From Terriglobia bacterium (GTDB lineage Bacteria; Acidobacteriota; Terriglobia; JAJPHL01; JAPKYU01): DNA of 64,000 nucleotides. The stretch covers positions 288,001 through 352,000 of the forward strand of contig CBDBKE010000004.1 of assembly GCA_965206645.1 (NCBI GenBank). The letters run 5' to 3'. The translations under genes and the position numbers were made by a program. This document shows positions 1,472 to 47,185 of this stretch, in pieces; positions within the stretch are counted from its first letter, which is position 1, and each line of letters begins with the position of its first letter. A model generated the notes under the pieces. That model worked only from the letters and a program-made list of their open reading frames with translations. It made no database searches and was not told where the DNA came from.

Positions 1472-1500
1472 TTTTTACTCTTCGCGCAAGAACGAGTCAA
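1472..1500 (-). promoter_or_regulatory. sigma70-like promoter for the candidate ncRNA
   Basis: TTGACT (1500-1495)-N17-TAAAAA (1477-1472) with an A/T-rich UP-like tract upstream (1501-1525); predicted start ~1464-1465 coincides with the terminal helix. Confidence 0.55.
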
Positions 1501-1748
1501 GAATTTTATTCTCTTTCTTTTCAACACGTAAGAAATCCGCAGGCTTCTTCGTGCAGCAATGCAATCACGGCTTTGGCAAGCTCTGCCCGGAGCGGCAGAG
1601 TCGCCCGGTCCAACCTGATGAAACCCGCGCCAGTCATGGCTCTTGCGCTCTGCACCGTCGTGCAGCAGAACGAGCTAGAACAGAAGATTCCCAGGATGTT
1701 CAGCTATGCCTAGACTGGACCTGACAGTGAGTTAAGAAATGCGTCGGG

Positions 1749-2780
1749 CTAGCGAAGTTCTTCCATGATCTCGTCCAGCACCTCTTTGTTTGGCCGGACG
1801 CTGTCTTCGGGCAGAGAGGCGAGTGGTGCGTCCACCATGTTCAGTAAATCCAGAAAATTCTTTTGGCGGGTTTCCAGATAGAGCAAACCCGTGAAGATGT
1901 GCCCTGTCTGCTGCGATTCCAGCAGGGCCCCGAGCGCGCCAGACTTGCTGGTGGGATCGTAGTCGTGGCCGAGCTTCTTCAGCACCACTCGCGAGCCGTC
2001 GTGCATCTCGACCTCCGTCGTTTGGCCGGGCTCATAATCCACGTCGATCTCTTTATAGGTTGGAATGAAGTCAATCTCGTGCAGCGGCTCCTCGTGCTGC
2101 TTCATGTAGGAGTAGCTCTTGGTTGAACCCTTGTGGTCGTTGAAGGCGACACACGGGGAAATGATGTCCAGCAGGATGGCGCCGCGGTGGGAGGTGGCCG
2201 CCTTCAACAGGGCCAGCAGTTGCTTCTTGTCGCCGGAGAACGAACGGGCCACGAAAGTGGCACCTAACTGAATCGCCAGGGCGCAGCAGTCAATCGTCGG
2301 CAGGTCGTTGACGGCCCCGCTCTTCAGCTTCGACCCTGTGTCGGCGGTGGCCGAGAACTGGCCTTTAGTGAGCCCGTACACGCCGTTGTTCTCGATGACG
2401 TAGATGATGGGCAGGTTGCGGCGCATGAGGTGGACAAACTGTCCGATGCCGATCGAGGCGGTGTCGCCGTCACCGCTGACCCCGATTTGAACCAGGTTGC
2501 GATTGGCCATCGCCGCTCCGGTCGCCACAGAGGGCATCCGGCCATGGACGCTATTGAAGCCGTGCGAGCCTTGCAGAAAGTAGGCGGGCGTTTTACTGGA
2601 GCAGCCGATCCCGCTGAACTTGGTTACCTGGTAGGGGTCGACCCCCAGGTCGTAGAAGGCGTCGATGATGCGCTCGGAGATGGCGTTGTGGCCGCAGCCG
2701 GCGCACAGTGTGGTCTTGCTGCCGCGGTAGACGGCCAGCTCCAACCCGACTCGGTTCAGTTTCTGAGGCGTGGCGCTCAT
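1749..2780 (-). CDS. 2-oxoacid:ferredoxin oxidoreductase subunit beta
   Basis: LCAGCGH, GIGCSS, HGR, TPP-binding GDGD...ENNGVYGLTKGQFS motifs; overlaps alpha-subunit stop. Confidence 0.95.
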   Translation of the reverse strand: MSATPQKLNRVGLELAVYRGSKTTLCAGCGHNAISERIIDAFYDLGVDPYQVTKFSGIGCSSKTPAYFLQGSHGFNSVHGRMPSVATGAAMANRNLVQIGVSGDGDTASIGIGQFVHLMRRNLPIIYVIENNGVYGLTKGQFSATADTGSKLKSGAVNDLPTIDCCALAIQLGATFVARSFSGDKKQLLALLKAATSHRGAILLDIISPCVAFNDHKGSTKSYSYMKQHEEPLHEIDFIPTYKEIDVDYEPGQTTEVEMHDGSRVVLKKLGHDYDPTSKSGALGALLESQQTGHIFTGLLYLETRQKNFLDLLNMVDAPLASLPEDSVRPNKEVLDEIMEELR

Positions 2781-4645: not shown

Positions 4646-4753
4646 GCCTTCTCCCGGAGTGAGTGCCGGCTCCAAAACCTTTATTATAGCAAGATTGAGG
4701 GGCGGCGATGCTACTGAAGGAAAATCTCAGATAACTGAAATGGACACACGTGC

Positions 4754-5740
4754 TCAGGCCAGCAGCCGGCGGGCGTCTTCAATGGTGGCGCGCAGGGTGT
4801 CGGCCGGGTCGCGGAAGGTAGCCCCCAATGCCTGGCTCGCTTTGCTGTTGTCCAGGTACCAGAAATGCGAGGCCATCTCCACTTCAGCCTGCGTTACCGG
4901 GAAGTACCTCGGAGCCAACGCGCGCATGACGGGGTTCAGGCGGGCCACCCAGCTGGAGACGTTCGCTGAGACTCTTGTCCGAGGCGCCTTCACTCCGGAA
5001 AGGACTTCCAGGCGGTAGAAAAATTCGGCAAAGGTCCAGTTGGGTCCTCCAAGGAAATACCGTTCGCCGGCATGACCTTTCTCCATCGCTGCCCCCAGGG
5101 CCGCTGCTGCGTCGCGCACGTCCAAGAAATTCAACCCTCCTGGCGGCACGGCGAAAACCTTCTGGCGCAGGAACAGGATCACTTCCCGGATGGATCGGCC
5201 CTTCTGGTCGCCGGGCCCCAGCAGCAGGCTGGGATTGACGACCACCACAGGCAGTCCGCGTGCGCGGTGATACGACAGGGCCAGTTTCTCTTCGAAGATC
5301 TTGCTTAAATAGTAAGGCCAGCGTCCCACCACGTCATTGGCAAACGGCTCGTCCTCCCGGTGGACGTCCGGCGAGCGGCTGACGGCAATCGTTCCGGAAG
5401 AGGAGACGAGAACTATCTTTTCGACACCAAACTCCAAGGCGGCCTCGCACAGGTTGCGCGTCCCCTCCACGTGCGTGCGGTAGAGCAGGGGCGCCTGGCT
5501 GGGCTCGCGGGACACAAGACCGGCCAGGTGATAGACGCGCGAGACGTCGCGCATCGCCTTGCGGACCGCAGCGCGATCGCAGACGTCTCCCTGCACCACC
5601 TCTGCGTCCGTCTGGGTTTCGCTCCAGCGCCCGCTGCGAGTCAGCAGGCGCAAGCCCGCGCTCGAGCCGGACTCGCGTATCCAGCGCAGCAGGTGAGTGC
5701 CCAGAAAACCGGTGGCACCGGTAATCAGGATCTTGCTCAA
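4754..5740 (-). CDS. NAD-dependent epimerase/dehydratase (extended SDR; ElbE-like)
   Basis: TGATGFLG, HLAG, YYLSK (YxxxK) motifs. Confidence 0.88.
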   Translation of the reverse strand: MSKILITGATGFLGTHLLRWIRESGSSAGLRLLTRSGRWSETQTDAEVVQGDVCDRAAVRKAMRDVSRVYHLAGLVSREPSQAPLLYRTHVEGTRNLCEAALEFGVEKIVLVSSSGTIAVSRSPDVHREDEPFANDVVGRWPYYLSKIFEEKLALSYHRARGLPVVVVNPSLLLGPGDQKGRSIREVILFLRQKVFAVPPGGLNFLDVRDAAAALGAAMEKGHAGERYFLGGPNWTFAEFFYRLEVLSGVKAPRTRVSANVSSWVARLNPVMRALAPRYFPVTQAEVEMASHFWYLDNSKASQALGATFRDPADTLRATIEDARRLLA

Positions 5741-6534
5741 GCCTGCCCGCCCTCGCGCAGTTGTTCCACGGCCTGCTGGATTCGTTCCGTCACTCGCAAG
5801 GTGGCCGCGTTGAACTTCATTCCCCGCCCAAGGGTCTCCGCCGCCAGTTGTTCATAGCTGAGGACGGTGCCAATGCGAGCCTCCAGTCGTCGCGATCGCA
5901 ACAGCGTCTTGCCTTTGGGAAGTGCCTTGTAGGTGCCGTGGAGGTATATGGGCAGCACATCCACCTGGTTTCTCAGGCAGAGAGCAGCGGCTGTACGCTT
6001 GAACCGGCCCATACGTCCATCCGGGCTTCGCGTCCCTTCCGGGAACACCAATAGGTTGTTTCCGGCAGCCAGGCAGGCATCGCCGTAAGGCAGAGCCCGG
6101 TGGAGCGGAATCTCCCGGTCCATGGGCAGAAGCTTGGTGCATTTCTGGCAGTAGGTGCGTTTCAGCTTGTTGTTGAAGAAGTAGTCGCTAGCAGCCAGCA
6201 CGTACAACTTTTTCCTTTGCCGGCCCAAAATGTGGGCTACCAACCCGTAATCGAGGTGGCTCGCGTGGTTGCTGACGACTAGGAAGTTGCTGTTCTGCGG
6301 AATCTGCTCCCGGCCCTCCACGCGCACGTGGAACGCCAGGCCGAACACGAGCTCTTCGGCCAGATCCACGGTCCAGTGGGTAAGAGCCGCCAGGGACCGG
6401 AGTAGCGGATAGGTATCTTCCAGATGGTTGGAGAGAGAACTTACCGTACCGGTTCCTAGCTGGCCGAAGCGGTTTGTTTGGCTCTGCCGGCGCGCGGCGC
6501 CTTCATGCTCCGCACGAACTCGGGCCGGATCCAT
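5737..6534 (-). CDS. Lysophospholipid/glycerolipid acyltransferase (PlsC family); start uncertain
   Basis: NHASHLD (HxxxxD) and FPEGTRS motifs; the ORF-track ATG overlaps the upstream gene by 79 nt, so the true start may be later. Confidence 0.85.
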   Translation of the reverse strand: MDPARVRAEHEGAARRQSQTNRFGQLGTGTVSSLSNHLEDTYPLLRSLAALTHWTVDLAEELVFGLAFHVRVEGREQIPQNSNFLVVSNHASHLDYGLVAHILGRQRKKLYVLAASDYFFNNKLKRTYCQKCTKLLPMDREIPLHRALPYGDACLAAGNNLLVFPEGTRSPDGRMGRFKRTAAALCLRNQVDVLPIYLHGTYKALPKGKTLLRSRRLEARIGTVLSYEQLAAETLGRGMKFNAATLRVTERIQQAVEQLREGGQA

Positions 6535-8063
6535 TTCTCAATGCCTTTGGTGTGTTTGTGTACCCAGTAATCTGCCCAGTCAATATTCTCCGGGTCCCAG
6601 GTCAACCGCTGGCGATCCGCCTCGGTTAGCTGGGCATAGGTATCGCGGATATTGCGCGATTCGAAAATGAACCGGCAGCGCACCATGAAGGGCAGGTACT
6701 GGTCCAGAGTTTGTTCCCGCAAGGCAATCTCCCGCGAGAGCATGCGCAGGCGCCGGTTTAATTCCTGCAGGCGCTCCTTGCCCGGCAGGCGGCGGCGCTG
6801 GGAAAGGCCCGATAGGCGGGAAACGGCGCGCTTGCTCAGGCTGAGCAGCTTCCGCTTCAGGCCGCGCTGCACCTTCAGTTCTTGTTCGGTGACCGCTCGG
6901 GTCTCGATGTAGGCCCGGGCCATGTTCAGGATCTTGCTGCCCTCGCTTTTCCTGCGGTTGATCTTGCGAGCATACATGCCCAGAAAATTCACCAGCCGAC
7001 GGTAGAGGACCGGGTTCACGTCGGCGCTCCCGAGCTGGTAGACCTGATGGTGCCGGTTGCACAGAATGGCGGCGCTGGCGATCAGCATCCCTGCCGCGAC
7101 CAAATCCACCGGCACGATTTCCAGCGGGTCCTCCTTCCGCACCGGCCAGCTTTTCACCCCCGCCGCCGCCATCAGGATCAGCGGCGCCGTGGTGCGGAAT
7201 CCCTCAGTCCAGCCGGGGACGGGGAAGCGAATCGCGGTGCCCACAATGGCCGGCCGCACGATGGTATAGACCAGGTCCTGTTCTCGCGCCAGAAACTGTT
7301 CGCCAAGGCTCTTCATGTAGGTGTAAGTATTGATCCAACCCCAGTGCTGGGCCCTCGCCATCCCCAGTCGCACCAGTTCCTTGCGGAGCTCCATCGGATC
7401 GTTCTGGTAGTTCTGGCGCGCCGCCTCGATTGCTTGTTCGCAGTATTTCAGCTCCTTGATGCAATCGAAGCGATCATCGGCCGGGCCGTTGCGTCGGGGA
7501 TAAAATCCCGGGACGGTGCTGTCCTCCGGTACCCTGCCGTCGTAGGCGCCCACGACATAGCAGGTGGAGATGTGCACCAGGCGGGCACCCAGGGCGCGGC
7601 ACAGCTGGCTCGCGTTCTTCGTGCCGTACAGGTTAGTGGCCAGGGACTCATCCAGAGGTGGAGAAAAATCAACCAGACCGGAGGAGTTGATGACGACGCC
7701 TGCCGCGCCCTTCAATTCGTCGATCTGGTTCCGGGAAAGCCCGCAGAGGGGCTCGCTGACGTCGCCTTCGAGCACCTGAATCTTGCGCTGCACAAAATCC
7801 AAACCCAGCTTTTCGACGATGGGCGTCAGAGCTGGCGAGTGGGCTGTTTCACCATAAAAGCGCTGCTCGGCGGAGCGGCCGGGCTTGGCCCGGCACAGCA
7901 CGTACAGTTTCTTCAAGTCGGGGTAGCGGTCCAGCAGCAGCGCCACCGTTGCCTTCCCCATGAAGCCGGTGGCGCCGATCAGCAGGATGCCGTTTTGGCG
8001 GAAGATGGCATCGGCGTCAATGGGGACGTCGGTTGGATGCATCTTGCTCGCAATCGCGGACAC
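6456..8063 (-). CDS. Fatty acyl-CoA reductase (NAD_binding_4 / male-sterility type)
   Basis: GATGFMGK, HISTCYV, GWINTYTYMKSLGE, IVRPAIV, VPVDLVA motifs of FAR/thioester reductases. Confidence 0.88.
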   Translation of the reverse strand: MSAIASKMHPTDVPIDADAIFRQNGILLIGATGFMGKATVALLLDRYPDLKKLYVLCRAKPGRSAEQRFYGETAHSPALTPIVEKLGLDFVQRKIQVLEGDVSEPLCGLSRNQIDELKGAAGVVINSSGLVDFSPPLDESLATNLYGTKNASQLCRALGARLVHISTCYVVGAYDGRVPEDSTVPGFYPRRNGPADDRFDCIKELKYCEQAIEAARQNYQNDPMELRKELVRLGMARAQHWGWINTYTYMKSLGEQFLAREQDLVYTIVRPAIVGTAIRFPVPGWTEGFRTTAPLILMAAAGVKSWPVRKEDPLEIVPVDLVAAGMLIASAAILCNRHHQVYQLGSADVNPVLYRRLVNFLGMYARKINRRKSEGSKILNMARAYIETRAVTEQELKVQRGLKRKLLSLSKRAVSRLSGLSQRRRLPGKERLQELNRRLRMLSREIALREQTLDQYLPFMVRCRFIFESRNIRDTYAQLTEADRQRLTWDPENIDWADYWVHKHTKGIEKWIRPEFVRSMKAPRAGRAKQTASAS

Positions 8064-34766: not shown

Positions 34767-36424
34767 CCCGGATTTCCGTTTTAAAACTCCAAAGCTAACC
34801 TTATACTGACCTCCGACGCCAATATTTATGCCGGTTCCAGCGTCAATACAGCTTCCGGAGGTAGAAACCGAGTGGGTGAGAGGCAAAATCAGCCCTTTCA
34901 GTTCTCTTTCAATGCTGCATTGAAGGTCGATTTCCAGGGGTCGCGGGTTACTTCCGACGGCGGCCTGATCCTCGTGCGCAAATCAGACGAACATTTGGGA
35001 TTCGGAGAACTCATCAAACAGCACTTGGCCGATCCTCGGAGAAAGAACACACGGTTGCCCTTTGCTGACCTCCTGCGCCAGTCCGTGTACAGCCGCTTGG
35101 CGGGTTACGAAGATATGAATGACGCGGAACGGCTCTCTCAAGATCCGACGTTCCGGCTGATCGGTTCAGAAAAGATCTGGGAGCGAGGAGCCGCGTTGAC
35201 TTCCCGGCTGCAATCGTTCGAGACAGAACTACTGACGCAAGATGAGAACCTGGCTGGTTTGGCAGCGATCAACCGGGATTTAATCGCCAGGGCGGAAGCT
35301 ATGGATTCCCCGCAACGGGTGGTGCTGGACATGGACTCGACCGAGATTCCGGTCTACGGCCAGCAGGAGCAGAGTGCCTACAACGGGCATTTCGAGTCGA
35401 GCTGCTATCACCCGTTGTTGCTGTTCAATCGCGAGGGTGACTGTCTGGCGGCCAAGCTGCGACCGGGCAACGTGCACAGCGCCGAGGACTGGAAAGAACT
35501 TCTCCTGCCGGAGATCGAGCGGCAGCAGCAGCTGGGCAAGGAAGTGGTGTTTCGTGCCGACGCGGCCTTTGCCAAGCCGGAGATTTACGAGGCTCTGGAG
35601 GAGCGGGAGGTAAAGTACGCCATCCGCATCCCGGCTAACGACAGCCTACAGCGGGACATTGAGGAGTTGCTGACTCGGCCGGTGGGGAGACCCAGCAAGA
35701 AGCCGTTGGTGGAGTTCAAGGGCTTTCTATACCAAGCGGCCAGTTGGAAGACAGCCCGCAGGGTGGTGGCCAAGGTGGAGCATCATCCAGGGGAGCTGTT
35801 CCCGCGAGTAGGGTTTATCGTTACGAACTTGACTCTGCCAAGTCGGGCGGTGATGCGGTTTTACAACAAGCGGGGGACAGCGGAGCAGTGGATCAAAGAA
35901 GGAAAGCAAGCAGTGAAGATGACGCGGCTCAGTTGTCACCGGTTCCGGTCGAACGAGGTCCGGCTGTGGCTCACCATCATTGCCTATAATCTCGGCAACC
36001 TGTGGCGGCGACTGGTGCTGCCACAGAGAATCGGGAACTGGTCCCTGACGAGCTTGCAACAGCGGTTGGTGAAAACGGGAGGACGGCTGGTGAAACATGC
36101 GCGATATTACTGGCTTTTGCTGGCCGAAGGGCACTTGAGCCGGAGGCTGTTCAGCAGCATGCTGCGAACGATCTCGGCACTGCCGCTGCCAGACGGCTAG
36201 CGAACCGGGAGAGAGGGTAATTTTAGGTGCTCAGAAGTGGTCGGGCCGGATAAGTGTCAGCGGCGCGGCAGGCTGGGCAGGCGAACCCCGCACAGCGACT
36301 CCGAAGAACAGCCAAAATGTGCCGCACTACCACCTCAAAGAGGCCAGAGCTGTTTGCGGTTGACATGACAGGGTACGAGGCATAGCTTTTCGGGTGAAGA
36401 GGAAGCTCGAAATGGAAATTCCGG
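34767..36424 (+). mobile_element. IS1380-family element, copy A
   Basis: IRs CCCGGATTTCC / GGAAATTCCGG; 5-bp target duplication CTAGA (34762-34766, 36425-36429). Confidence 0.93.
34872..36200 (+). CDS. IS1380 transposase
   Basis: VTSDGGL, LAGYED.ND, LDMDST, FRADAAF, YNKRGTAEQWIKEGK. Confidence 0.95.
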   Translation: MGERQNQPFQFSFNAALKVDFQGSRVTSDGGLILVRKSDEHLGFGELIKQHLADPRRKNTRLPFADLLRQSVYSRLAGYEDMNDAERLSQDPTFRLIGSEKIWERGAALTSRLQSFETELLTQDENLAGLAAINRDLIARAEAMDSPQRVVLDMDSTEIPVYGQQEQSAYNGHFESSCYHPLLLFNREGDCLAAKLRPGNVHSAEDWKELLLPEIERQQQLGKEVVFRADAAFAKPEIYEALEEREVKYAIRIPANDSLQRDIEELLTRPVGRPSKKPLVEFKGFLYQAASWKTARRVVAKVEHHPGELFPRVGFIVTNLTLPSRAVMRFYNKRGTAEQWIKEGKQAVKMTRLSCHRFRSNEVRLWLTIIAYNLGNLWRRLVLPQRIGNWSLTSLQQRLVKTGGRLVKHARYYWLLLAEGHLSRRLFSSMLRTISALPLPDG

Positions 36425-36813
36425 CTAGAATAATGAAGCCGACCTCCGCCAGCAAGAGCTTGGCTTCTGGCATACGGGTCCGGGAGCGTGACCGTGTTCA
36501 CGGACCAGTTGGTCCCGGCGGTGCTTGTGGATGCGAGATCGAAGTGTGAATGGGTTCCGTCCTCGCCCTGATAGGAGATCAGAGCCCAGCCATTGAGCGT
36601 GTCCAGGAAGAAGACTGAAACGACGCGCGCCCGCGGGCCCAGGGGCGGCGTAATGTCTTTCCAACTGGCGCCTGCATCGGTTGTCCAGCGAATTCCCTTC
36701 CCACCAGCTAGCCAGCCCACCTCGGGCGTGAGCAGTTTCATCGCCGCGCGGGCCGGCGAGGCGGCGGAGAAGAATAACGCTGAAAATAGCACCATGCTAA
36801 TGGTCACCCTCAT
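36425..36813 (-). pseudogene. YCF48-like/BNR-repeat secreted protein, 5' fragment
   Basis: Signal peptide, WTTDAGASWKDITPP, VFFLDTLNGW; rejoining with the 3' fragment still leaves a 1-nt frame offset. Confidence 0.75.
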
Positions 36814-36971
36814 CTTTGGCAGCACGGAAAACCTCCTTCGAAGCGACATTCCGGGTGAATCAGACTGAACTGACGATGGCTTCCGTGTACCGTCGCTATC
36901 AGCTGTAGTGTCCTGAGTTGCAAGGGAGAGAGAACCAGGCATCGGCCCACAGGTGGAGTTTCGGGCAGTGG

Positions 36972-38102
36972 TCAGCCGCTGAAGTACTCTTTCATCTTCT
37001 CGAGGAAGCCTTTGTCTGAGGGCGAGTTGTCGGCCGGAGAGATCTCGGCCAGTTGCTGAAGCAGTTGGCGCTGCTCGCTAGTGAGGCGGGTGGGCGTCTG
37101 CACCTTCACCTGAATGTAAAGATCGCCGCGCCCTCTCCCATCCAGGTCGGGAAAGCCACGGCTACGAATGCGGAAGACGGCATCGGCCTGCGTGCCTTCT
37201 GGAATTTTCAGTGTTTGCTTACCCTCCAAGGTAGGGATCTGGATCTCAGCGCCCAGCGCCGCCTGCCAGAACGAAAGCGGGACCGTGCAGCTCAGATCGC
37301 GATCGTGGCGCTCGAAAAACGGATGTTCCCCGACGATAAGCACCACGTAGAGGTCGCCCGGTGGGCTACCCTGCGTGCCTGCTTCCCCTTCGCCGGGCAC
37401 GCGTAACCGCGTCCCGGTATCCACCCCGGGAGGAATGCGCACCTGCAGGGTCTTCTCGCGGCGAAGCCGTCCTTGGCCGCGGCACTCGGGACAGGGGTGG
37501 CGAATGACCTGGCCTGTGCCGTGACAGGTTGAGCAGGGCCGGCTGATGGAGAAAAAGCCCTGTGTATAGCGGACCTGGCCGCGGCCGCCGCACTGGGAAC
37601 AGATGGTCGGCGAGGTGCCCTTCTTGGCCCCTGAGCCCAAGCAGGCCCCGCAGGTCTCTCGACGAGGCACCTTGATCTGCGCTTCCAGACCGAAGGCGGC
37701 TTCGTCAAAGCTGATCTCGAGGTCGAAGCGCAAGTCGGCGCCGCGGTTGGAGCGGGCGCCACGCCCGCGGCCGCCCATCCCGAACAGGTCGCCGAAGCCG
37801 AAGAAGTCCCCTGAAACGTCCTCGAATTCGGTGAAGATGGAAGGATCGAACCCGCCGGCCCCGACGCCGGCGACCCCGGCCGGCCCGAACTGGTCGTAAC
37901 GGGCGCGCTTCTGTGGGTCGCTCAGGATGCTGTAAGCCTGGGAGGCCTCTTTGAATTTTTCCTCGGCTTGCTCGCGGTGGTCCGGGTTTCGGTCGGGGTG
38001 GTGCTCCAGCGCTTTCTTGCGGTAGGCGCTCTTGATTTCCTGCTCGCTGGCATTTCGAGCCACGCCGAGCACTTCGTAATAATCTTGTGTGTTGCCGTTC
38101 AC
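36972..38102 (-). CDS. dnaJ: Molecular chaperone DnaJ
   Basis: DYYEVLGV, HPD, G/F-rich region, four CxxCxGxG repeats; GTG start overlaps grpE stop. Confidence 0.97.
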   Translation of the reverse strand: MNGNTQDYYEVLGVARNASEQEIKSAYRKKALEHHPDRNPDHREQAEEKFKEASQAYSILSDPQKRARYDQFGPAGVAGVGAGGFDPSIFTEFEDVSGDFFGFGDLFGMGGRGRGARSNRGADLRFDLEISFDEAAFGLEAQIKVPRRETCGACLGSGAKKGTSPTICSQCGGRGQVRYTQGFFSISRPCSTCHGTGQVIRHPCPECRGQGRLRREKTLQVRIPPGVDTGTRLRVPGEGEAGTQGSPPGDLYVVLIVGEHPFFERHDRDLSCTVPLSFWQAALGAEIQIPTLEGKQTLKIPEGTQADAVFRIRSRGFPDLDGRGRGDLYIQVKVQTPTRLTSEQRQLLQQLAEISPADNSPSDKGFLEKMKEYFSG

Positions 38103-38674
38103 TGAACTTTGCGCACTGCGACCTTTACCAGCGCCGGGCGGAGCAGCCGCTTCCGAAACAGGTAGCCGCGCTGCCATTCTGTCAGGATAGCCTGGTCGTC
38201 GTGGTCCTCGGTTTCCACGCGCTCCACAGCTTCGTGGAGGTGCGGATCAAATGTCTGCCCGAGGGCCTGGATCGGTTCCAGCCCAAAACGAGCCAATGTG
38301 TCCCACAACTGGCGGGCAATGAGTTGAATGCCGGAGCGAAACTCGTCGTCGCCGCCCTGCGAGGCTAGAGCACGTTCCAAGGCGTCCATTACCGGTAGCA
38401 TTTCTCTTACCACTTCCATGGAGACGCGATGCAGATCCTCTTTCCGCTCCTTCTCCAGCCGTTTGCGGTAGTTGTCAAAATCGGCACGGGCACGCAGGAA
38501 GCTGTCGAACACGGAGGCTTTTTCCTCGGCCAGGCGGTCCCGCTCGGCAGTCAACGCCTGAAGAGGATCCAGGGCTTCCGCCGCTGCCGGTTCTGCGCTG
38601 GCAGCCCCTTGAGAGTTCTCTTCCTCTATTGCTTTTGTCTCCTCGTTCGCTTCCGACTTGGCCATCTCGTCCAT
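38099..38674 (-). CDS. grpE: Nucleotide exchange factor GrpE
   Basis: ADFDNYRKR, LPVMDALERAL, FDPHLHEAV, GY...RLLRPALVKV. Confidence 0.96.
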   Translation of the reverse strand: MDEMAKSEANEETKAIEEENSQGAASAEPAAAEALDPLQALTAERDRLAEEKASVFDSFLRARADFDNYRKRLEKERKEDLHRVSMEVVREMLPVMDALERALASQGGDDEFRSGIQLIARQLWDTLARFGLEPIQALGQTFDPHLHEAVERVETEDHDDQAILTEWQRGYLFRKRLLRPALVKVAVRKVQ

Positions 38675-38684
38675 GACTTTCTCG

Positions 38685-39743
38685 CTAATGTTGGCCGATT
38701 GCCTCTCCGACCTGCCGGGCCACCTCCGACACGGCGCTGATAACTCGCTCGTAGGGCATGCGCGGCGGCCCCAGCACCGCCACCCGGCCCGCCAGTCCTC
38801 CAGCCGTGATGCACGGCGCACCGACCAACGCAAAATCCTGCATCGGGGGATCGGTGTCCAGCCCGATGACGACCTGGGCCTGTTTCCACTCTGGGGACTC
38901 CGCTTCCTGAATGTAGCGGGTAATGAGTTGGACCAGGCGCTCCTTCTCCTCCAACGCCCGTAATAGGTCGCGCAGGACTTGAGGATTGTCCAGTTCAGGA
39001 CGGCCCATCAAGTGGGAGGTCCCTTCCAGGTAGACACCGGCGCTGGCATCGCTTTCTAGAATGCCTAGTCGCCAGAGCTTGGCCAGCCGCCGCAGCAACT
39101 CGTCGTACCTGGCGCGTTCTTCCTGCATTAGGCGAGTGATTTCGCTGCGCGCGGCTTCCAGGCGCCAGCCGGCAAAATTGCAGTTCAGGTAGTTGGCCAC
39201 GCGGTCCAGTTCGTCCTGATGAAATTCTTCTTCCACTCGGACCACCCGGCTGCGCGCCGGCGCACCGCGCGGCGCCAGCAGTACCAGCACGCGCCTTTCC
39301 GCGAGCTGCACGAACTCGATGTGTTCGAGTAACGTATCGGCGGCTGTGGCCGATACCACAATGCCGATATTGTGGGTCACCCTCGAAAGCACGTGCGAGG
39401 CCCGCTCCAGGATCGCCTGGGGGCCTTCTGTGGTGCCTTGGATCTCGCGCCGAATTCGTTCTTCTTCCTTGCGGGGCAGGTGCCGGACGGGGCGGGCAAG
39501 ATGCTCCACATAGAATTGGTAGGCTTTGCCGGTAGGGATGCGGCCCGCCGAGGTATGCGGTTGGCGCAGGTATCCGTCGGCTTCCAGGTCGGCCATGGTA
39601 TTGCGGATGGTAGCTGGGCTAAGCCGGTCGCGGCGCCGGTGTGAGATCGTGAGCGAGCCGACAGGCTGTCCAGTGGCGATATAGGTGCGGATGATGACCG
39701 CCAAAACTTCCCGGTTTCGCCCTTCCAGCCCGGAGGTCCGCAT
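38685..39743 (-). CDS. hrcA: Heat-inducible transcription repressor HrcA
   Basis: YIATGQPVGS, SPATIRN.MADLE..GYL.QPHTSAGRIPT, VLGPPRMPY. Confidence 0.96.
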   Translation of the reverse strand: MRTSGLEGRNREVLAVIIRTYIATGQPVGSLTISHRRRDRLSPATIRNTMADLEADGYLRQPHTSAGRIPTGKAYQFYVEHLARPVRHLPRKEEERIRREIQGTTEGPQAILERASHVLSRVTHNIGIVVSATAADTLLEHIEFVQLAERRVLVLLAPRGAPARSRVVRVEEEFHQDELDRVANYLNCNFAGWRLEAARSEITRLMQEERARYDELLRRLAKLWRLGILESDASAGVYLEGTSHLMGRPELDNPQVLRDLLRALEEKERLVQLITRYIQEAESPEWKQAQVVIGLDTDPPMQDFALVGAPCITAGGLAGRVAVLGPPRMPYERVISAVSEVARQVGEAIGQH

Positions 39744-39775
39744 TTTCAATAAGTTGGAGTCAAAGTAAGCAACCT

Positions 39776-39805
39776 ATTTTACGATTTTCAGCCGGCGGCT
39801 GTCAA
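39776..39805 (-). promoter_or_regulatory. sigma70 promoter of hrcA-grpE-dnaJ
   Basis: TTGACA (39805-39800)-N18-TAAAAT (39781-39776). Confidence 0.7.
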
Positions 39806-39807
39806 GT

Positions 39808-39834
39808 TTAGCACTATTGGTATGAGAGTGCTAA
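39808..39834. promoter_or_regulatory. CIRCE element (HrcA operator)
   Basis: TTAGCACTA-N9-GAGTGCTAA, one mismatch to TTAGCACTC-N9-GAGTGCTAA, directly upstream of the hrcA -35. Confidence 0.93.
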
Positions 39835-39881
39835 GCAGCCGTCTGCGTCCTGCTTTTTGAATCTTGGTCGGCAGCACCCAG

Positions 39882-41795
39882 CTACTTCGTCTCCTGCTTC
39901 TTCTCTTGCGGGCACGGCTTGATGGACATGCCTGGCGGCAGCTTGGTTTCTGCATCCCCACATGCCGAATCAAGCTACTCCTGCGTGAGACCTCCGGCAT
40001 ATCTCAGGTCGGCTCCCTGGAGCTTGGCGAGCTCGAGGAAGGCCCTCTGGAGGTTGGCGCCGCGGAGGGCGGCCTCCCGGAGGTTGGCGCCGAAGAGATC
40101 GGCCCCCTGGAGGTTGGCGTCGTAGAGGCTAGCCATCCGAAGGTCGGCTTCATCGAGGTCGGCTTTGACCAGGTGCGCCGCCACTTTGCGCGGTTGAAAG
40201 AGGGCCGCCCGTTCCTTGTCCAGTTCAAGGAATGGACCATCATCTTTCTCGCCTGGTGGACCGTCCCAGCGACCCTGTTTGCCTTCTGGCTCAGATACCT
40301 TCGCCGTCACGAATGGGGCGGCACGGGGTTGCACGTTTTTATTCTGGTGGCCGCGGTTGCTCTCGGGATCATTTTCTATCGTTCCGCGGCGCGAACACTG
40401 CGAGGGGCCGACCCTCCGCTGTTTGGGTGGAAGACATTTTGGCGGAACCGCAGAATCTTTCAAGTAGCCGGTACATCTCTTCTTGGCGTCTTGCTTTCGG
40501 TGCTCTCCTTCGGCGCAATCGAGGGGTTTCGGGGACGCAATCCGGATCGGGCCGATATTGCCAGCGCGGAGCAGTTCGTTAAGAAATGGGTGCCGCAGGC
40601 CTTTGGAAAAGTTGGCTACAGCCCGTTCGCCGACCTGGTAGAAGCAAAGGTTTCGATCAAGCCTGAGAACTGGACGGGAATCGGCGATGAGGAGCAGCTC
40701 AACGCCCAAATCGCTCAAGTCAAGGGGGCGCGCCTGGAGGGCATGGACCTCCGTTACGCTTCCGCAGATGGCGCGTTCCTGACCATTCAGGAGCCAGGGG
40801 TAAGCGCGCTCATCCAACCGCTTGCCGTCGGGAAACTTCGCCGGGAGGCCCGCCAACCCTTCCCACAGCATGCCCAGGTAAAAATGGAGATAGACGTAAA
40901 ACCCCAGCAGGGCAAACGGTGCGGCCCAATAGAACCAAGCGATGGGGATTTCCGTCCGTATGATCGGAAGCGGGGAGGAAGCCGAATTCGTGAGGAGCCG
41001 CGCGTCGGTTGTGGTGGCGATCGTCAGCAACGAGTAGGCACAGCCCGACAACATCGCCAGGAAAATCTTGCGTGCGTTCTTGGAGGTTTCGGCGACGGTC
41101 TCCAGTATTTTGAAATCGCGAATGTCTTCCGGCAGTTTTGCTCCGGTTACATCCGCGCGCGCAAACTCCGTCCCCAGGAGTCCGTTAGCACCGTCGAAGT
41201 TCGCATTCTGTAATCTAGCCTCAGCCAACCCTTCAACACCTTCTAGCCCCGCTCCTTGGAGTTTCGCTTTAGTTAGGTCGGCCCCGCAAACGTCGGCCGC
41301 CATGAGGTGAGCCCTCTGGAGGTTGGCTTCGTAGAGGTCGGCCCCCTGGAGGTTGGCTTCGGTGAGGCTGGTGCCCTGGAGCTTAGCTTCTTTGAGGTCG
41401 GCCCCCTGGAGGTTGGCGCGAAAGAACTCGGCCCCTTGGAGGTTTGCGGCGTAGAGGCGCGCCCGCTGAAGGTTGGTCCCGAGGAGGTCGGCCTCCTGGA
41501 GGTTGGCGCCTTCGAAGTCGGCCCTCTGGAGGTTGGCTCCTTTAAGGTCAGCCCCCTGGAGGTTGGCGCCGCTGAGGTTGGCCTCCCGTAAGTTGGCGAG
41601 GACTAGGCAGGCGTTTTCGAGGTTGGCCTTCTGGAGGTTGGCACGGCTGAGGTCGGCGTGCTTACCTTGCTTTCCCTGCGATTCTACCCACTTCCGATGC
41701 GCTTCAAGAATCTCTGCCAATTCCTCTTTGCTGATCTCTCGAAACTCAGGCTTTTCAGAGGTGGGTGCTTCGGGCCCCTTTGTTTCCTCGTTCAT
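39882..41795 (-). pseudogene. Pentapeptide-repeat membrane protein disrupted by an internal inversion and a nonsense codon
   Basis: ANLQG/ADLxE repeats at both ends; the middle 40171-40780 codes on the opposite strand; TAG at 39977-39975 interrupts GLTQE*LDSACGDAETKLPPG. Confidence 0.85.
40171..40780 (+). other. Inverted 610-bp intragenic segment
   Basis: Re-inversion gives in-frame YPWLLNG-QVRRHF...GARLEGMDLRYASADGAFL-VKADLDEADL; 4-bp CAGG/CCTG microhomology at the junctions. Confidence 0.85.
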
Positions 41796-41877
41796 CTTGC
41801 CTGCCCCTTGACCACGCCGGGGATAAAGATCCACGGCCTGCGACATCTTAGCAGCATGCAGAAAGAACCTGCCAGCG

Positions 41878-41951
41878 TGTCATTCCGAGCGGTGACAGTC
41901 TACTGCCGCTACAGATTGAAAAGCAGATTCCTCGCTGCGCTCGGAATGACA
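41878..41951. repeat. REP/MITE-like inverted repeat element
   Basis: 14-bp perfect IR TGTCATTCCGAGCG ... CGCTCGGAATGACA; right arm recurs at 44998-45026. Confidence 0.7.
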
Positions 41952-42031
41952 ACGGGGCAGGAACCTGAAACCGCAGCGCCTGCGGGCACGTCATCACAAC
42001 ACAGAGGCCACCACAGAGGGGAGGAGTTCCA

Positions 42032-43015
42032 ATGCGCCTGCCTGCCGTCCCGCTGTTCCTGCTTCTGGTTGCATTCTCCCTGCCTGTTTTCCCGGCCCCG
42101 ATCGAGCCGACGATTCCGGAAACGACCATTCGGGTGGACGTGAACCTGGTCAGCTTCCCCGCAACTGTCACCGACCGCTATAGGCGCTATGTGGGCTCCC
42201 TGCGCCGGCGGGACTTCACCTTGTATGAGGACGGCGTGCCGCAGAAGATCGCCGTCTTCCACAACGAAATTGTGCCTGTTAGCGTGGGCGTGGTGATTGA
42301 CACCAGCGGGAGCATGGTGGACAAGATTCAGGAGGCGGCCGACGCCCTGACTTACTTCGTCAACACCATCCAGCCCGAGGATGACGTCTTTCTGATCCGC
42401 TTCGCGCGAACCGTCAAGCTGGAACTGGACTTCACCGCGAACCGGGCGCTGTTCCGCCGGGCAGCCTACCGGCTGCGCGCTCGAGGCTCCACGCGGCTCT
42501 ATGACGCGCTGGCCGAAGCGCTGGACAAAGTCCGAAGCGGGCTGCATCAGAAGAAGGCCATCGTGCTAATTACCGACGGCAACGACACTTCCAGCTACGT
42601 CGGCTTCGAGGAGGTGTTGGAGATGGCGCGCCGCTCCGAAGTGCTGGTCTACGCAATGGGGATTGGGCACGGGCACCGCGGCTTGCTGGGCGAACTTCGC
42701 CGCCACGCGCGCCGGCGGCGGGGCCAAGACCGGGTGGACATGCGGGTCCTGGGGGCCATTGCCGGCGCTACCGGCGGCTTCGCCTTCCACCTGGAGAATG
42801 CGCACCGCCCGGGAGCAGACCTGATTGACCAGGCTGCGCAGGAAATTTCCACCGAGCTGCGGCAGCACTACACCATCGGCTACTATCCCACCAACGCCGC
42901 GCGAGACGGAACCTACCGGAATATCAAGCTGGAGGCCAAAGTGCCCGGCCTGAGAGTCCGTCACCGCCGTGGCTACTATTCGCCGGGGGAAACCTCCGCC
43001 CGTGCGCGGCCTTGA
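42032..43015 (+). CDS. VWA domain protein (acidobacterial VWFA-related)
   Basis: TIRVDVNLV..PATVTD, DF.LYEDG.PQKI, MIDAS DTSGSM, TRLYDA, ITDGNDT, ELRQHYTIGYYP. Confidence 0.9.
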   Translation: MRLPAVPLFLLLVAFSLPVFPAPIEPTIPETTIRVDVNLVSFPATVTDRYRRYVGSLRRRDFTLYEDGVPQKIAVFHNEIVPVSVGVVIDTSGSMVDKIQEAADALTYFVNTIQPEDDVFLIRFARTVKLELDFTANRALFRRAAYRLRARGSTRLYDALAEALDKVRSGLHQKKAIVLITDGNDTSSYVGFEEVLEMARRSEVLVYAMGIGHGHRGLLGELRRHARRRRGQDRVDMRVLGAIAGATGGFAFHLENAHRPGADLIDQAAQEISTELRQHYTIGYYPTNAARDGTYRNIKLEAKVPGLRVRHRRGYYSPGETSARARP

Positions 43016-43059
43016 GAGTTGAAATTTCAGGATGGCAGGGAAGCTGCTCTTGCACCCTG

Positions 43060-43602
43060 CTACGCGATGCCTGACTCCGGCCGGCGTTTCTGCGGGAGCT
43101 TCTCTTCTTCACGCCGCTGCAACTGGAACACTTTTTCGGCGACGAATATCTTGGCGCCGGAGCGCAGCGCCAGCGCGATCGAGTCGCTCGGCCGGGCGTC
43201 GTAGGTCTGTTGACGGCCGTCTTTCTGAAAGGTCAGGTTGGCGAGAAAGGTGCCGTTCACCAGGTCTCGCACCACGACGCGCTCGACCTGCCAGCCATTG
43301 CGGTCCAGGAACGTCTTGAAGATGTCGTGGGTCAGGGGCCGTGCCGCCTTCTTTTTCAGTTGCGCCAGGTTAATGGAGTGGCCTTCGGAGAAGCCCACAA
43401 TCATCTCGATCCGGTCCACACTATCTACTGCGCGCAGGGCCACGGCGAAGCCCGCGTTGGTCAGCATCAGGCGGTCCAGCACGACTTCGCGAATGTCCTC
43501 CTTGCTTTTCTCCGCCGCGGGAAGCGAGGTGGGAGCACCCAGCAGGGAAGGCCATACGCACAACAGCAGCATCATCATCACCCGGCACACATTGCGTCTC
43601 AT
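43060..43602 (-). CDS. Bifunctional nuclease family (DUF151) protein
   Basis: RPLTHD, GTFLANL, DARPSDSIALALRSGAKIFV. Confidence 0.85.
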   Translation of the reverse strand: MRRNVCRVMMMLLLCVWPSLLGAPTSLPAAEKSKEDIREVVLDRLMLTNAGFAVALRAVDSVDRIEMIVGFSEGHSINLAQLKKKAARPLTHDIFKTFLDRNGWQVERVVVRDLVNGTFLANLTFQKDGRQQTYDARPSDSIALALRSGAKIFVAEKVFQLQRREEEKLPQKRRPESGIA

Positions 43603-43840
43603 ATGCAACTCCTCTGAGGCCAGGCTACCCTGTTGCAGCCCAGGCCTGCCAACCCAGATCTGCGGTGATAGTAGCACGACTCGAAACCTGAGACGGCACG
43701 CGTCGTGGTAGAATTTGCGGACGAACGGAATCAACCAACTAGCGCGCAGCATGTTTCTGCGAAAAGTAAAGACGCACCTGTCCGTGGCAGAATCCGCCGA
43801 TGCTTTCTCGGTTCCTTCGATTGTCCCTTGAAGCAATAGC

Positions 43841-44530
43841 GTGCCGGCCCGCGTCGCCCTGCTGATTCCTGCACTGAACGAAGAGGCATCTATCGGGCAT
43901 GTACTCAGCAGTCTGCCCGAGGGCGTGTTTTCCCAGATTGTGGTGGTGGACAACGCCAGCACCGACCGAACCGCCGAGGTGGCTCGAGCCCTGGGCGCCA
44001 CCGTGGTTCGGGAGCCGCGGCGGGGCTACGGACGCGCCTGCCTGGCAGGGTTAGCGGCGCTGGAAGCGAACACCGACACGGTTGTGTTCATGGACGCCGA
44101 TTCCAGCGACGTCCCCGAGGAGGCGGGACGCCTGCTGGAGCCGATTGTCTCTGGGTCTGCGGATTTGGTGATTGGCTCGCGCGTGCTGGGCCAGGCCGAG
44201 CCCGGAGCGCTGGCCCCGCACCAGCGCTTCGGCAACCGCCTCGCCACCTCCCTGGTGGCTTGGCTCTACGGCTTTCGCTACACCGACCTCGGTCCCTTCC
44301 GCGCGATTCGCGCTGATCGCCTTCGCCAACTGGGCATGCGGGATTGCGACTTTGGCTGGACGGTCGAGATGCAGGTGCGCGCGTTGCGCTGCGGGCTGCG
44401 CGTGGTGGAGGTGCCGGTCAGCTACCGGCGGCGCATCGGAACCAGCAAAATCTCCGGCAACCTGCGCGCTTCTCTGGCTGCTGGGTGGAAGATCATTTCT
44501 ACCATCCTCCGCCTGCGATTCGTCTCTTAA
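43841..44530 (+). CDS. Glycosyltransferase family 2
   Basis: IPALNEE, VVDNASTDRT, RGYGRAC, FMDAD, TDLGPFRAI, GWTVEMQ. Confidence 0.92.
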   Translation: MPARVALLIPALNEEASIGHVLSSLPEGVFSQIVVVDNASTDRTAEVARALGATVVREPRRGYGRACLAGLAALEANTDTVVFMDADSSDVPEEAGRLLEPIVSGSADLVIGSRVLGQAEPGALAPHQRFGNRLATSLVAWLYGFRYTDLGPFRAIRADRLRQLGMRDCDFGWTVEMQVRALRCGLRVVEVPVSYRRRIGTSKISGNLRASLAAGWKIISTILRLRFVS

Positions 44531-44581
44531 CGGGGGTCTCTTTGCCGGGGTCCGGACGACTTCCTGATGGCCGCCTAACTG

Positions 44582-44941
44582 CTAACGTTCCCTTTGGTGG
44601 GAACGGTGTCCGTTTGTTCCTTGGACATCTCCAGATTCAGGGCTTTCTTGCAGGTGGAGGACCAGCTCCTGCTCCACAAAGAGGACTTCCATGCCCTCCC
44701 GCACCAGGACCTTGCAGGAGAGGACCGTGCGCGGCCTGCCGTCCATGCCGACCACCACCACCCGGCAGTACTGGCATTCTTCATTCCAGCAGAAGCGGCC
44801 GTAGGGAATCGTGTTGGGGCTCACGAATTGGAAGCCCCGAAGCAGGATGTTGTTCTCCGGGACCTCGGCGGTTTTCCCCAGCACCGTGATTTTGATTAGG
44901 CGTTCGTAGGGGGCATACAGTCCGCTTGTCTGGGTGGACAT
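44582..44941 (-). CDS. Small 2Fe-2S cluster-binding domain protein
   Basis: VPENNILLR, FCWNEECQYC...LSC cysteine pattern; TAGAAT 7 nt upstream of ATG. Confidence 0.7.
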   Translation of the reverse strand: MSTQTSGLYAPYERLIKITVLGKTAEVPENNILLRGFQFVSPNTIPYGRFCWNEECQYCRVVVVGMDGRPRTVLSCKVLVREGMEVLFVEQELVLHLQESPESGDVQGTNGHRSHQRER

Positions 44942-44997
44942 CCGAACTATTCTACTCCAGGAGGGTTCTGGAAAATGCCCGGCCAGCGTGCGGAAAG

Positions 44998-45026
44998 GCA
45001 GATTCCTCGCTTTGCTCGGAATGACA
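44998..45026. repeat. REP-like half element
   Basis: GCAGATTCCTCGCTTTGCTCGGAATGACA matches 41923-41951 at 27 of 29 positions. Confidence 0.7.
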
Positions 45027-45065
45027 GGGAAGTCGCTTTTTCGGCACCCTGCCGACCGCTTCTCC

Positions 45066-45764
45066 TCATCGGACTGCAGGATACCAACGGGCCAACCGAT
45101 GCGCCGGCACTCCCAGGGTATAAAAGGTCTGAATCCAGAACCAGGTCCACATCGTCCGCCACACTCCCCGGTTCTCCCATCGGCGGGATGACACCTCAAG
45201 TTCCTCGCGCAGATGAGCCAAGCGTCCTGCCTTCCACAGACGCCTGGCAAATTCGTAATCTTCCATCAGTGACAGCGGAGCGAAGCCGCCCAGCCGTTCA
45301 AAGACGGACCGCCGCACGAAGATGCCCGAATCCGCATAGAAGATCCCAAAGCGCCGCCGGTGGTGATTGATGGCGGTAAACAATCGGCTGGCCACAGCAT
45401 GTCCGCCGCCGGCAAAACGCACCCGGAAGTTGCCTCCCAGGATGGACGTGTCCGCCAGAGCGCGCTCGATGGCCAGGATGCCGTCCGGGTGGAAGCGCAC
45501 ATCGGCGTGCAAGAACAACAGGACGTCACCGCGTGCGGCGCCTGCGCCGGCGTTCATCTGGGCCGCGCGTCCTCGCGCAGCGTGCAGAACTCGGCATACG
45601 GAGTTGAAATCCGCGGCGATCTTGATCGTGGTATCTGTGCTGTCGCCGTCCACGACCAATACTTCAAACGCTCCCTGGGCGGCGGCCAGCGAACGCAACG
45701 TGGCGGCCAGCACGCGTTCCTCATTTAGGACGGGAATGATGACGGAAACCACTACCTGCAGCAC
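45066..45764 (-). CDS. Glycosyltransferase family 2 (TIGR04283-like); start approximate
   Basis: SVIIPVLNEE, VVDGDSTD, GRAAQMNAGA, LLFLHAD, GGF....LMED, SSRRW. Confidence 0.85.
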   Translation of the reverse strand: MLQVVVSVIIPVLNEERVLAATLRSLAAAQGAFEVLVVDGDSTDTTIKIAADFNSVCRVLHAARGRAAQMNAGAGAARGDVLLFLHADVRFHPDGILAIERALADTSILGGNFRVRFAGGGHAVASRLFTAINHHRRRFGIFYADSGIFVRRSVFERLGGFAPLSLMEDYEFARRLWKAGRLAHLREELEVSSRRWENRGVWRTMWTWFWIQTFYTLGVPAHRLARWYPAVR

Positions 45765-45898
45765 CTGTACAAATTGGAGGCCCTGTGTCCGGAGAGTAGC
45801 AGCTACGATTCTCCACGTGTCTATCTCGCGGATTCTACCCGCCGGCGCGCGGATTCTACCCGCCGGCCGAACCGGAAGCAAGGTCAACTCCCCCTAAG

Positions 45899-45927
45899 TT
45901 GACATCCCCCAACCGCGCTGCTATACG
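45899..45927 (+). promoter_or_regulatory. sigma70-like promoter of the aminotransferase operon
   Basis: TTGACA-N17-TATACG with extended -10 TG; ATG 7 nt downstream of the -10. Confidence 0.5.
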
Positions 45928-45934
45928 GTTCAGG

Positions 45935-47185
45935 ATGGGAGCGCAACCCTTGCGGCATTCCGCCCGCACCTCGCTGCTTCTGCCCACCGCAGTGAACTCC
46001 ATCCTTTCCGAGGTTCGTCGGTATCAGGCGGAAGGCAGAGAATGTATCTCACTGATGCGAGGACAGCCTGACATTCCCACCCCGCCGCACATCGTGGAGG
46101 CCGCGGCTCGTGCGCTCCGGTATGGGCGCACCGGCTACCCGGACAATCGCGGTGAACCGTCGCTTCGGGAAGCAGTCGCCGAAAAACTGCGTCGCGAGAA
46201 CCAACTCCATTACGAACCCGGCTCGGAAATCCTCATCACTACGGGCGCCACGTTTGGCATCTACGCAGCCCTGACGGCCCTGCTGAACGAAGGCGACGAA
46301 GTGTTGCTACCCGACCCGATCTACGACGCCTACCGGTCACCGATCCTGCTGGCGGGCGGCCGGGTGCGGTCGGTCCCCGCTAAGCTTCAGGGCGACCGAT
46401 TTCGCCTGGACCGCGAAAGCCTGGAATCGGCTTGGACTCCAGCCTGCAAAGCACTGCTGCTGAACACACCATGGAACCCGGTGGGTTCTGTCTTCACGGA
46501 GACCGAGCTGAACGATATCGCCGGGTTTCTGGAGCAGCGCGACGTGCTGCTCCTCAGCGATGAGATTTATGAGGCGATCCTCTACGGCGATCGCCGGCAC
46601 GTTTCGCCCGCCTCACTTTCCGAGCGCCTCCGCGCGAGGTGCATCGTCGTGAACAGCCTGTCCAAAACATATGCGATGACCGGGTGGCGGGTGGGCTATT
46701 GCGCGGGACCAAAGGAACTGATCCAGGCGATGTTCCTGGTGCTCCAGCAATCGAGTCGCGGTCCGGCGCTGTTTGTGCAGGATGCTGCAGTAGTGGCCTT
46801 GGGCGGACCGCAAGATTGCGTTCTTGAGATGCGCGCGGAATACAGCCGGCGCCGCGCACAGGTTCTGGAGCAATTGAAGGGAATCCAGGCGACGGTGGTG
46901 CTGCCTCCGGAGGGAGGCTTCTTTGCCATGCTTGACATCCGTGAGCTAGGTCTGGCTTCCGACGAGGTTCGCCGGCGACTTCTGGCGGAAAGCGGCGTCG
47001 TGGTGGTCCACGGCGCCGCCTATGGTTCGGGCGGAGAGGGCACCTTACGAGTGTCCTTCGCCGCCGGCGGTGAGAACCTGACGCGCGGATTGGGGCGTTT
47101 GCGAGAGGGTTTGGCACGGATCAGCACAGAGCCGAGTAGCAGCGGCGCGCCGAGCGCAGGCGTTCCAAATTTTGCCCAGCCATGA
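45935..47185 (+). CDS. PLP-dependent aminotransferase class I/II
   Basis: GQPD, NTPWNPVG, SDEIY, SLSKTYAMTGWRVGY. Confidence 0.93.
   Translation: MGAQPLRHSARTSLLLPTAVNSILSEVRRYQAEGRECISLMRGQPDIPTPPHIVEAAARALRYGRTGYPDNRGEPSLREAVAEKLRRENQLHYEPGSEILITTGATFGIYAALTALLNEGDEVLLPDPIYDAYRSPILLAGGRVRSVPAKLQGDRFRLDRESLESAWTPACKALLLNTPWNPVGSVFTETELNDIAGFLEQRDVLLLSDEIYEAILYGDRRHVSPASLSERLRARCIVVNSLSKTYAMTGWRVGYCAGPKELIQAMFLVLQQSSRGPALFVQDAAVVALGGPQDCVLEMRAEYSRRRAQVLEQLKGIQATVVLPPEGGFFAMLDIRELGLASDEVRRRLLAESGVVVVHGAAYGSGGEGTLRVSFAAGGENLTRGLGRLREGLARISTEPSSSGAPSAGVPNFAQP

Follow-up and report, generated by a model that had tools for sequence, protein, structure and literature searches.

A probable cryptic pseudogene formed by a frame-keeping inversion inside a pentapeptide-repeat membrane protein gene of a Terriglobia bacterium

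A gene for a pentapeptide-repeat membrane protein that reads sensibly at both of its ends and as antisense in its middle raises the question of whether the central block is a reversible switch that recodes the protein, an artefact of the deposited genome, the making of a new functional protein or a lesion. The gene (C4:327975-329846) lies in a window of 64,000 nucleotides, the whole stretch of DNA analysed here (C4:288001-352000), in genome G000, a 4.4-Mb assembly in 4 contigs with 61% GC. Our analysis points with good confidence to an illegitimate inversion, fixed in the lineage, that turned the gene into a cryptic pseudogene and is neither an inverton nor an artefact.

The interrupted gene and its ancestral arrangement

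The minus-strand open reading frame (ORF) 39975..41846 (623 aa) is composed of an N-terminal part, 204 antisense-like codons and a C-terminal part. The features of the locus are as follows:

40782..41795, minus strand: N-terminal part, pentapeptide repeats and two hydrophobic helices, up to ...YPWLLNG (PF00805, E-value 1.8e-42)
40170..40781, plus strand: inverted block of 204 codons, whose plus strand encodes the conserved membrane core QVRRHF...RYASADGAFL with three hydrophobic segments
40170..40173, no strand: left junction CAGG, one half of a 4-bp inverted microhomology
40778..40781, no strand: right junction CCTG, completing the 4-bp inverted microhomology
39978..40169, minus strand: C-terminal pentapeptide-repeat part of 64 codons, VKADLDEADL...GGLTQE (PF00805, E-value 2e-15)
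39975..39977, minus strand: premature TAG, strain-private; CAG (Gln) in runs X7, X8 and X9 and in four of six database alleles
39882..39974, minus strand: orphaned tail LDSACGDAETKLPPGMSIKPCPQEKKQETK, with the native stop TAG at 39884-39882
39864..41213, plus strand: by-product ORF of 449 aa, made of the antisense of the C part, then the sense core, then the antisense of some of the N part

The three-part ORF with its missing core on the plus strand, as proposed in a sequence-only reading of this DNA, was confirmed from the ORF and its translations. The block given there as 40171-40780 is an equivalent description, which we refined to 204 whole codons at 40170-40781 (612 bases), the breakpoints being ambiguous within CAGG (40170-40173) and CCTG (40778-40781). 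Residues 1-355 of the mechanical ORF correspond to 40782-41846 and end in ...DERAYPWLLNG; the frame reaches upstream to 41846, beyond the likely native start at ATG 41795-41793 (MNEETKG...), which was assigned from orthologues beginning MNEETKG and has an AAGGGG motif upstream of it. The minus-strand reading of the block (QERAICG...KVAAHL) is a hydrophilic, low-complexity-looking stretch of 204 aa with no stop, and no family match was found for it (40781 down to 40170). Sense and antisense readings of 40170-40781 use identical triplets, i.e., the antisense is in register, and the three hydrophobic segments of the sense reading (hereafter the M piece, with N and C for the flanking parts) have no counterpart in its antisense reading. 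The conserved core is thereby disrupted with respect to intact orthologues, as in a pseudogene. The C-terminal part 39978..40169 contains fewer repeats than the orthologues and sister strains, and the TAG at 39977-39975 does clip the C-terminal tail, as had been suggested, the native TAG at 39884-39882 standing 30 codons further. No sign of use was found for the plus-strand ORF 39864..41213, which carries TGG>TAG at 40315 in run X7.

The PF00805 model scored 180 bits on the whole ORF against a cut-off of 20.2, with the N and C pieces each above the cut-off. The product, with its tandem A(D/N)LXX repeats, thus passes the Pfam gathering threshold and is a pentapeptide repeat protein (PRP). The family is laid out as a PRP domain, about five hydrophobic segments and a second PRP domain, and its relatives bear the JGI label 'uncharacterized protein YjbI with pentapeptide repeats'. 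The 204-aa M piece matched no Pfam or NCBIfam model and no significant PDB relative (best E-value 0.18), and the Qnr, MfpA, HetL and PipB models scored far under their cut-offs. In the ESM Atlas the clusters nearest to M were pentapeptide proteins, with scores of 0.89-0.90, which we treat as a lead only. Our literature search returned no description of this membrane-core pentapeptide protein family in Acidobacteria.

A search of 41 genomes matched the M piece in four, including G000 itself: G003 of the same genus (M at 75% identity, in an open frame of 751 aa) and two genomes of the same class, G032 and G016. In all three orthologues the N, M and C pieces follow head to tail on one strand and adjoin without gaps at both junctions, which bears out the collinear homologues anticipated for the re-inverted protein; N and M show 70-75% identity to the 751-aa orthologue. 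A database search with M retrieved 45 longer proteins, all with pentapeptide Pfam domains and 41 of them covering all of M, and the flipped block 40170-40781 fits all 45; the relatives inspected read ...LLNG-L-VRRH... and ...DGAF-L/V-(V/I)KADLD... at the two junctions. At the DNA level, positions 36949-40138 and 40768-43738 of the window are collinear with G003, and 40172-40781 aligns to it in the opposite orientation with 80.7% identity. The breakpoints correspond to adjacent bases in G003 (7676|7677 and 8276|8277 of L006), so that the inversion is balanced to the base, with none lost or gained. The claim that flipping the block restores a continuous gene is thus upheld by collinearity with the orthologues at both protein and DNA level, and the G000 form is the derived arrangement.

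Several other loci were uninformative. In two further genomes of the genus, G001 (96% complete) and G002 (62%), M was unmatched and so was HrcA, and they are uninformative about the locus; two loci from the same family, L007 and L008, have hrcA but showed no PRP gene in the short upstream DNA compared. A metagenome scan with M gave 112 pattern matches, among which were one relative (44% identity, L005) and no close strain. Two database proteins break off partway through the membrane core, P0038 after 444 aa (covering 42% of M) and P0048 after 419 aa (36%); they could be contig-end fragments or other truncated alleles.

Strains carrying the inversion and decay of the gene

Nine public runs share words with the stretch, and four of them, X4 (share 1.00, possibly the source run), X7 (0.79), X8 (0.74) and X9 (0.72), were compared; they come from three studies and were compared as contigs only. 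None of the nine is recorded as an RNA run. The junctions were represented in them as follows:

X4: both junctions on one 5,551-nt contig covering 39000-41947 with 0 differences; un-inverted joint, none listed
X7: left junction on record 8 (39000-40238), right junction on record 9 (40210-41103); un-inverted joint on one contig, with 32 differences over 308 nt
X8: left junction on record 18 (40047-40641), right junction on no piece among those listed; un-inverted joint, none listed
X9: left junction on record 25 (40102-40646), right junction on record 27 (40725-41019); un-inverted joint on one contig, with 27 differences and 2 gaps over 225 nt

The bridging contigs in X7, X8 and X9 show the inverted arrangement with a few differences per piece, and the junction-bridging contigs of at least about 98.5% identity are of one orientation throughout the four runs, as seen in contigs, which drop rare variants. 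The un-inverted joint (40172|40781 on opposite strands, the expected ancestral N|M junction) is restricted, among the pieces listed, to the two contigs of X7 and X9, which are about 88-90% identical, and the un-inverted M|C joint was not among the listed joints of any compared run. The check on orientation that had been recommended, made here on contigs of public runs, therefore found the inverted form alone at close identity and the un-inverted joint on diverged contigs. By their divergence of about 10%, the un-inverted contigs represent a sister population present in the same samples, not the same strain flipped. A paralogue was also considered as their origin and rejected, G000 having no second copy of the gene.

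A protein search with the antisense-coded stretch retrieved a single cluster of six alleles sharing at least 96% identity. Each has its own contig, the six ranging from 61 kb up to 2.2 Mb, the last of these from G000, and all the alleles contain the antisense-read block; P0004 and P0005 showed no differences in alignment A2, and the six may not be independent samples.

These alleles and runs record what happened to the gene after the inversion. Position 39977 is G in place of A (TAG to CAG) at full depth in X7, X8 and X9, and the TAG is therefore strain-private and younger than the inversion, in agreement with the proposal that it was a separate event. P0001 (657 aa) extends uninterrupted to the native stop; in P0004 and P0005 the N-terminal repeats are shorter by 30 aa and the junction codon has changed L>R. 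P0006 has a frameshift in the C-terminal repeats; P0007 has Leu where the start Met is presumed, and a P>L change that corresponds, in the old sense frame, to the TGG>TAG of X7 at 40315. The G000 allele (P0008, deposited as 606 aa) combines the TAG with the fewest C-terminal repeats. Private changes that are disabling or possibly disabling (TAG, frameshift, start loss) thus occur in three of the six alleles, and in the other three (P0001, P0004 and P0005) the frame runs unbroken between presumed start and native stop and shows no disabling change. Among the within-lineage changes listed for the block, all five are non-synonymous when read in the old sense frame, the W>stop of X7 among them, and four out of five in the current frame, these substitution counts being tiny. 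All four listed differences of the sister population in the helices of the N part (40848, 40917, 40938 and 40989) are synonymous. The secondary lesions and non-synonymous drift are those of a pseudogene under relaxed constraint, though the numbers are small; the picture suggests drift after inactivation, and from the lost helices the product would most likely be non-functional.

The number of pentapeptide repeats was found to vary in frame among near-identical strains (at 40000-40170 and 41300-41660; P0001, P0004-P0008), in steps of 10, 15 and 30 aa and with a 30-nt insertion after 40078 in X7. Such in-frame variation is typical of repeat slippage.

The openness of both orientations, to which attention had been drawn, is true, yet near chance. 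When 4,683 windows of 204 codons were drawn at random from 1,561 long ORFs of G000, the in-register antisense was open in 16.5%, and the other two antisense frames in 0.85% and 1.2%. In-register antisense stops arise from the sense codons TTA, CTA and TCA, which together make up 1.0% of the codons in the same 1,561 ORFs. The orthologous block contains one such antisense stop in G003, four in G032 and none in G016, i.e., it is open in one of three. The open antisense frame is therefore close to chance and not remarkable. For preservation of the whole frame by a random inversion of this size we obtained about 2% (one third, for length, multiplied by the mean of 0.165, 0.0085 and 0.012); this is uncommon, but a scan such as the one that flagged this locus picks exactly such open cases, which is an ascertainment bias. 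The intact G016 orthologue has a 516-aa open frame on its antisense strand (L004 520-2067, minus), an illustration of how easily antisense frames remain open in this GC-rich gene family.

These observations bear on the possibility that the inversion has produced a new protein, functional and favoured by selection, in which a 204-residue hydrophilic antisense linker joins the N part (PRP and two helices) to the C-terminal PRP domain and possibly places that domain on the other side of the membrane. Its fixation in strains from three studies, the block open in six of six alleles with start to native stop open in three, and the low frequency at which a random inversion keeps the whole frame are compatible with such a protein, which we nevertheless consider unlikely, given the ascertainment bias, the private truncating or start-loss changes in half of the alleles, the four of five listed block changes that alter the current frame, and the destruction of a conserved membrane core present in 45 of 45 relatives. 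That no new stop has arisen is of no weight, only about five changes having accumulated after the inversion. The more specific proposition of a fixed antisense-recoded protein, its three-helix core swapped for a linker, its C domain re-sited and the allele swept because it was useful, is in our view quite unlikely; were it true, the later C-terminal truncations would be tolerated trimming.

Origin of the inversion

Our search for inverted repeats (seed 6, minimum length 8) found no pair at both junctions among the 25 longest of 197 pairs listed, and the block is bracketed by just CAGG/CCTG, 4 bp, where an inverton would be expected to have a bracketing pair of about 10 bp or more. Two assertions of the sequence-only reading, that the junctions share no more than CAGG and that the window holds no invertase, were accordingly sustained: no longer pair at both junctions was listed with the 6-nt seed, and the 64-kb window contains no match to Resolvase (PF00239) or Phage_integrase (PF00589). 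The nearest tyrosine and serine recombinase matches are located at C4:449694 and C4:961582, the nearer of them about 120 kb from the gene. Genome-wide there are 36 tyrosine and 3 serine recombinase matches, and one of these 39 distant matches may act in trans.

In the available text of Chanin et al. (bioRxiv 10.1101/2023.03.11.532203), invertons are flanked by inverted repeats that site-specific recombinases recognise, and the thiC inverton has an 11-position repeat. These two defining features, inverted repeats and a nearby recombinase, are absent here. The recoding inverton that had been put forward, here taken as reversible with its other orientation too rare to be visible in contigs, is very unlikely. 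It would account for a balanced, in-frame inversion whose flip restores the full gene, could draw on the recombinases encoded elsewhere in the genome, and its minority form would be lost from contigs; but the repeat is just 4 bp and strains differ at base 40171 inside it, the closest recombinase match is about 120 kb away, the cited invertons are flanked by repeats that a recombinase recognises, and a single orientation is seen on a background of 98.5-100% identity in four runs and six assemblies. Moreover, the X7 strain has acquired a stop in the old sense frame (40315 G>A), and flipping back would not restore the gene there. The inversion is most likely a one-off mutation, not a programmed switch.

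That the deposited genome carries an assembly, amplification (MDA) or chimeric-read artefact, which had been held at least as likely as an inverton, is exceedingly improbable: MDA chimeras are known to leave short balanced inversions at microhomology, and the genome is a 4-contig assembly, but the inverted junctions recur in independent contigs from four runs of three studies, and the antisense-read block is also encoded, with differences particular to each strain, in five other assemblies, so the inversion is real.

The preferred reading, an illegitimate inversion followed by decay, can be laid out as a sequence of steps. In the ancestor of a narrow lineage (G000 and close strains, with alleles of at least 96% protein identity), one balanced inversion of 40170-40781 would have taken place. 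The exchange at sites sharing at most 4 bp (CAGG/CCTG) suggests illegitimate recombination and not a site-specific invertase, and its route may have been either two breaks rejoined, by Ku-type end joining or type II topoisomerase exchange, or a replication template switch. As the block is made of whole codons with the breaks between codons, the gene would from then on have read it in in-register antisense, which in a genome of 61% GC is often stop-free, and the ORF would have remained open. Three of the approximately five hydrophobic segments would thereby have been replaced by 204 hydrophilic antisense-derived residues. Subsequent drift would have produced the TAG of G000 and, in the sister strains, a frameshift, loss of the start codon and, in one strain, a stop within the block's old sense frame, with repeat numbers varying, the probable end state being a cryptic pseudogene that is called as an intact protein of 606-664 aa. 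The idea of a microhomology-mediated lesion in a decaying gene was thus retained as to lesion and decay, with template switching or a break-and-rejoin route as its candidate mechanism.

Ku is encoded in the genome, which makes end joining possible, and no more. Type II topoisomerase exchange involves a 4-base stagger. Base 40171 is A in G000 and X7 and C in X8 and X9. The DNA of G003 has CTG at the left junction codon and the protein relatives inspected have Leu, so a simple flip would give T at 40171, unlike the A or C observed; the ancestral microhomology may have spanned fewer than 4 bp, or this base may have changed during or after the event. A restriction cut at CCWGG on both breakpoints was dropped as a candidate, CCWGG being present at one junction alone in either orientation.

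Neighbourhood, implications and comparison with known systems

A palindrome TTAGCACTA-N9-GAGTGCTAA at 39808-39834, which from the CIRCE consensus we take to be CIRCE-like, is abutted by a promoter-like site (TTGACA-18-TAAAAT, 39805-39776, minus strand, 11 of 12 matches), and both are situated upstream of hrcA (38685-39749, minus strand) and grpE. This positions the broken PRP gene immediately upstream of a heat-shock operon, on the same strand. At 41860-41970 (core at about 41918-41954) and again at 44993-45026 the window contains a AGATTCCTCGCTGCGCTCGGAATGAC-like motif of about 35 nt, which in the first case lies within an imperfect palindrome (arms 41868-41891 and 41938-41961) and occurs at 12 places in the genome. 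Its summed contig depth in the four runs was 1,490-7,400 against about 10-100 around it, and so the motif is common to many organisms or loci in those samples. It looks like a dispersed repeat of the REP/MITE type; Rfam gave no match over 36000-46000, the motif included.

Biologically, the case would amount to an ordinary loss of an accessory membrane protein, with the inversion first and the private nonsense, frameshift and start-loss changes after it. Its wider significance lies in annotation: where a genome is rich in GC, an inversion that is balanced and codon-exact can inactivate a gene without introducing a stop, so that gene callers and pseudogene filters pass it, and the five sister assemblies likewise report the inverted gene as an intact protein. 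Since a sister population in the ancestral orientation co-occurs in the samples, inverton callers working at loose identity could mistake cross-mapping for phase variation. Our literature search found no description of such an intragenic-inversion lesion at microhomology in bacteria.

In comparison with pentapeptide-repeat proteins (PF00805), both flanking domains of the family are clear pentapeptide repeats; unlike in those proteins, a conserved membrane core of about 330 aa stands between the two PRP domains. With the recoding intragenic invertons, as the available text of their description presents them (bioRxiv 10.1101/2023.03.11.532203), the locus shares its position inside one gene, the keeping of the frame and two formally possible products of the same length; it differs from them in a repeat of at most 4 bp, no nearby recombinase, one orientation seen across strains and decay afterwards. 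The preferred reading fits the rearrangement pseudogenes generated by illegitimate recombination at short or no homology, in which one rearrangement breaks a conserved gene and independent secondary lesions follow. Unlike the usual members of that class, the rearrangement in this gene is balanced, codon-exact and stop-free, and its product stands deposited as a protein of 606 aa (P0008).
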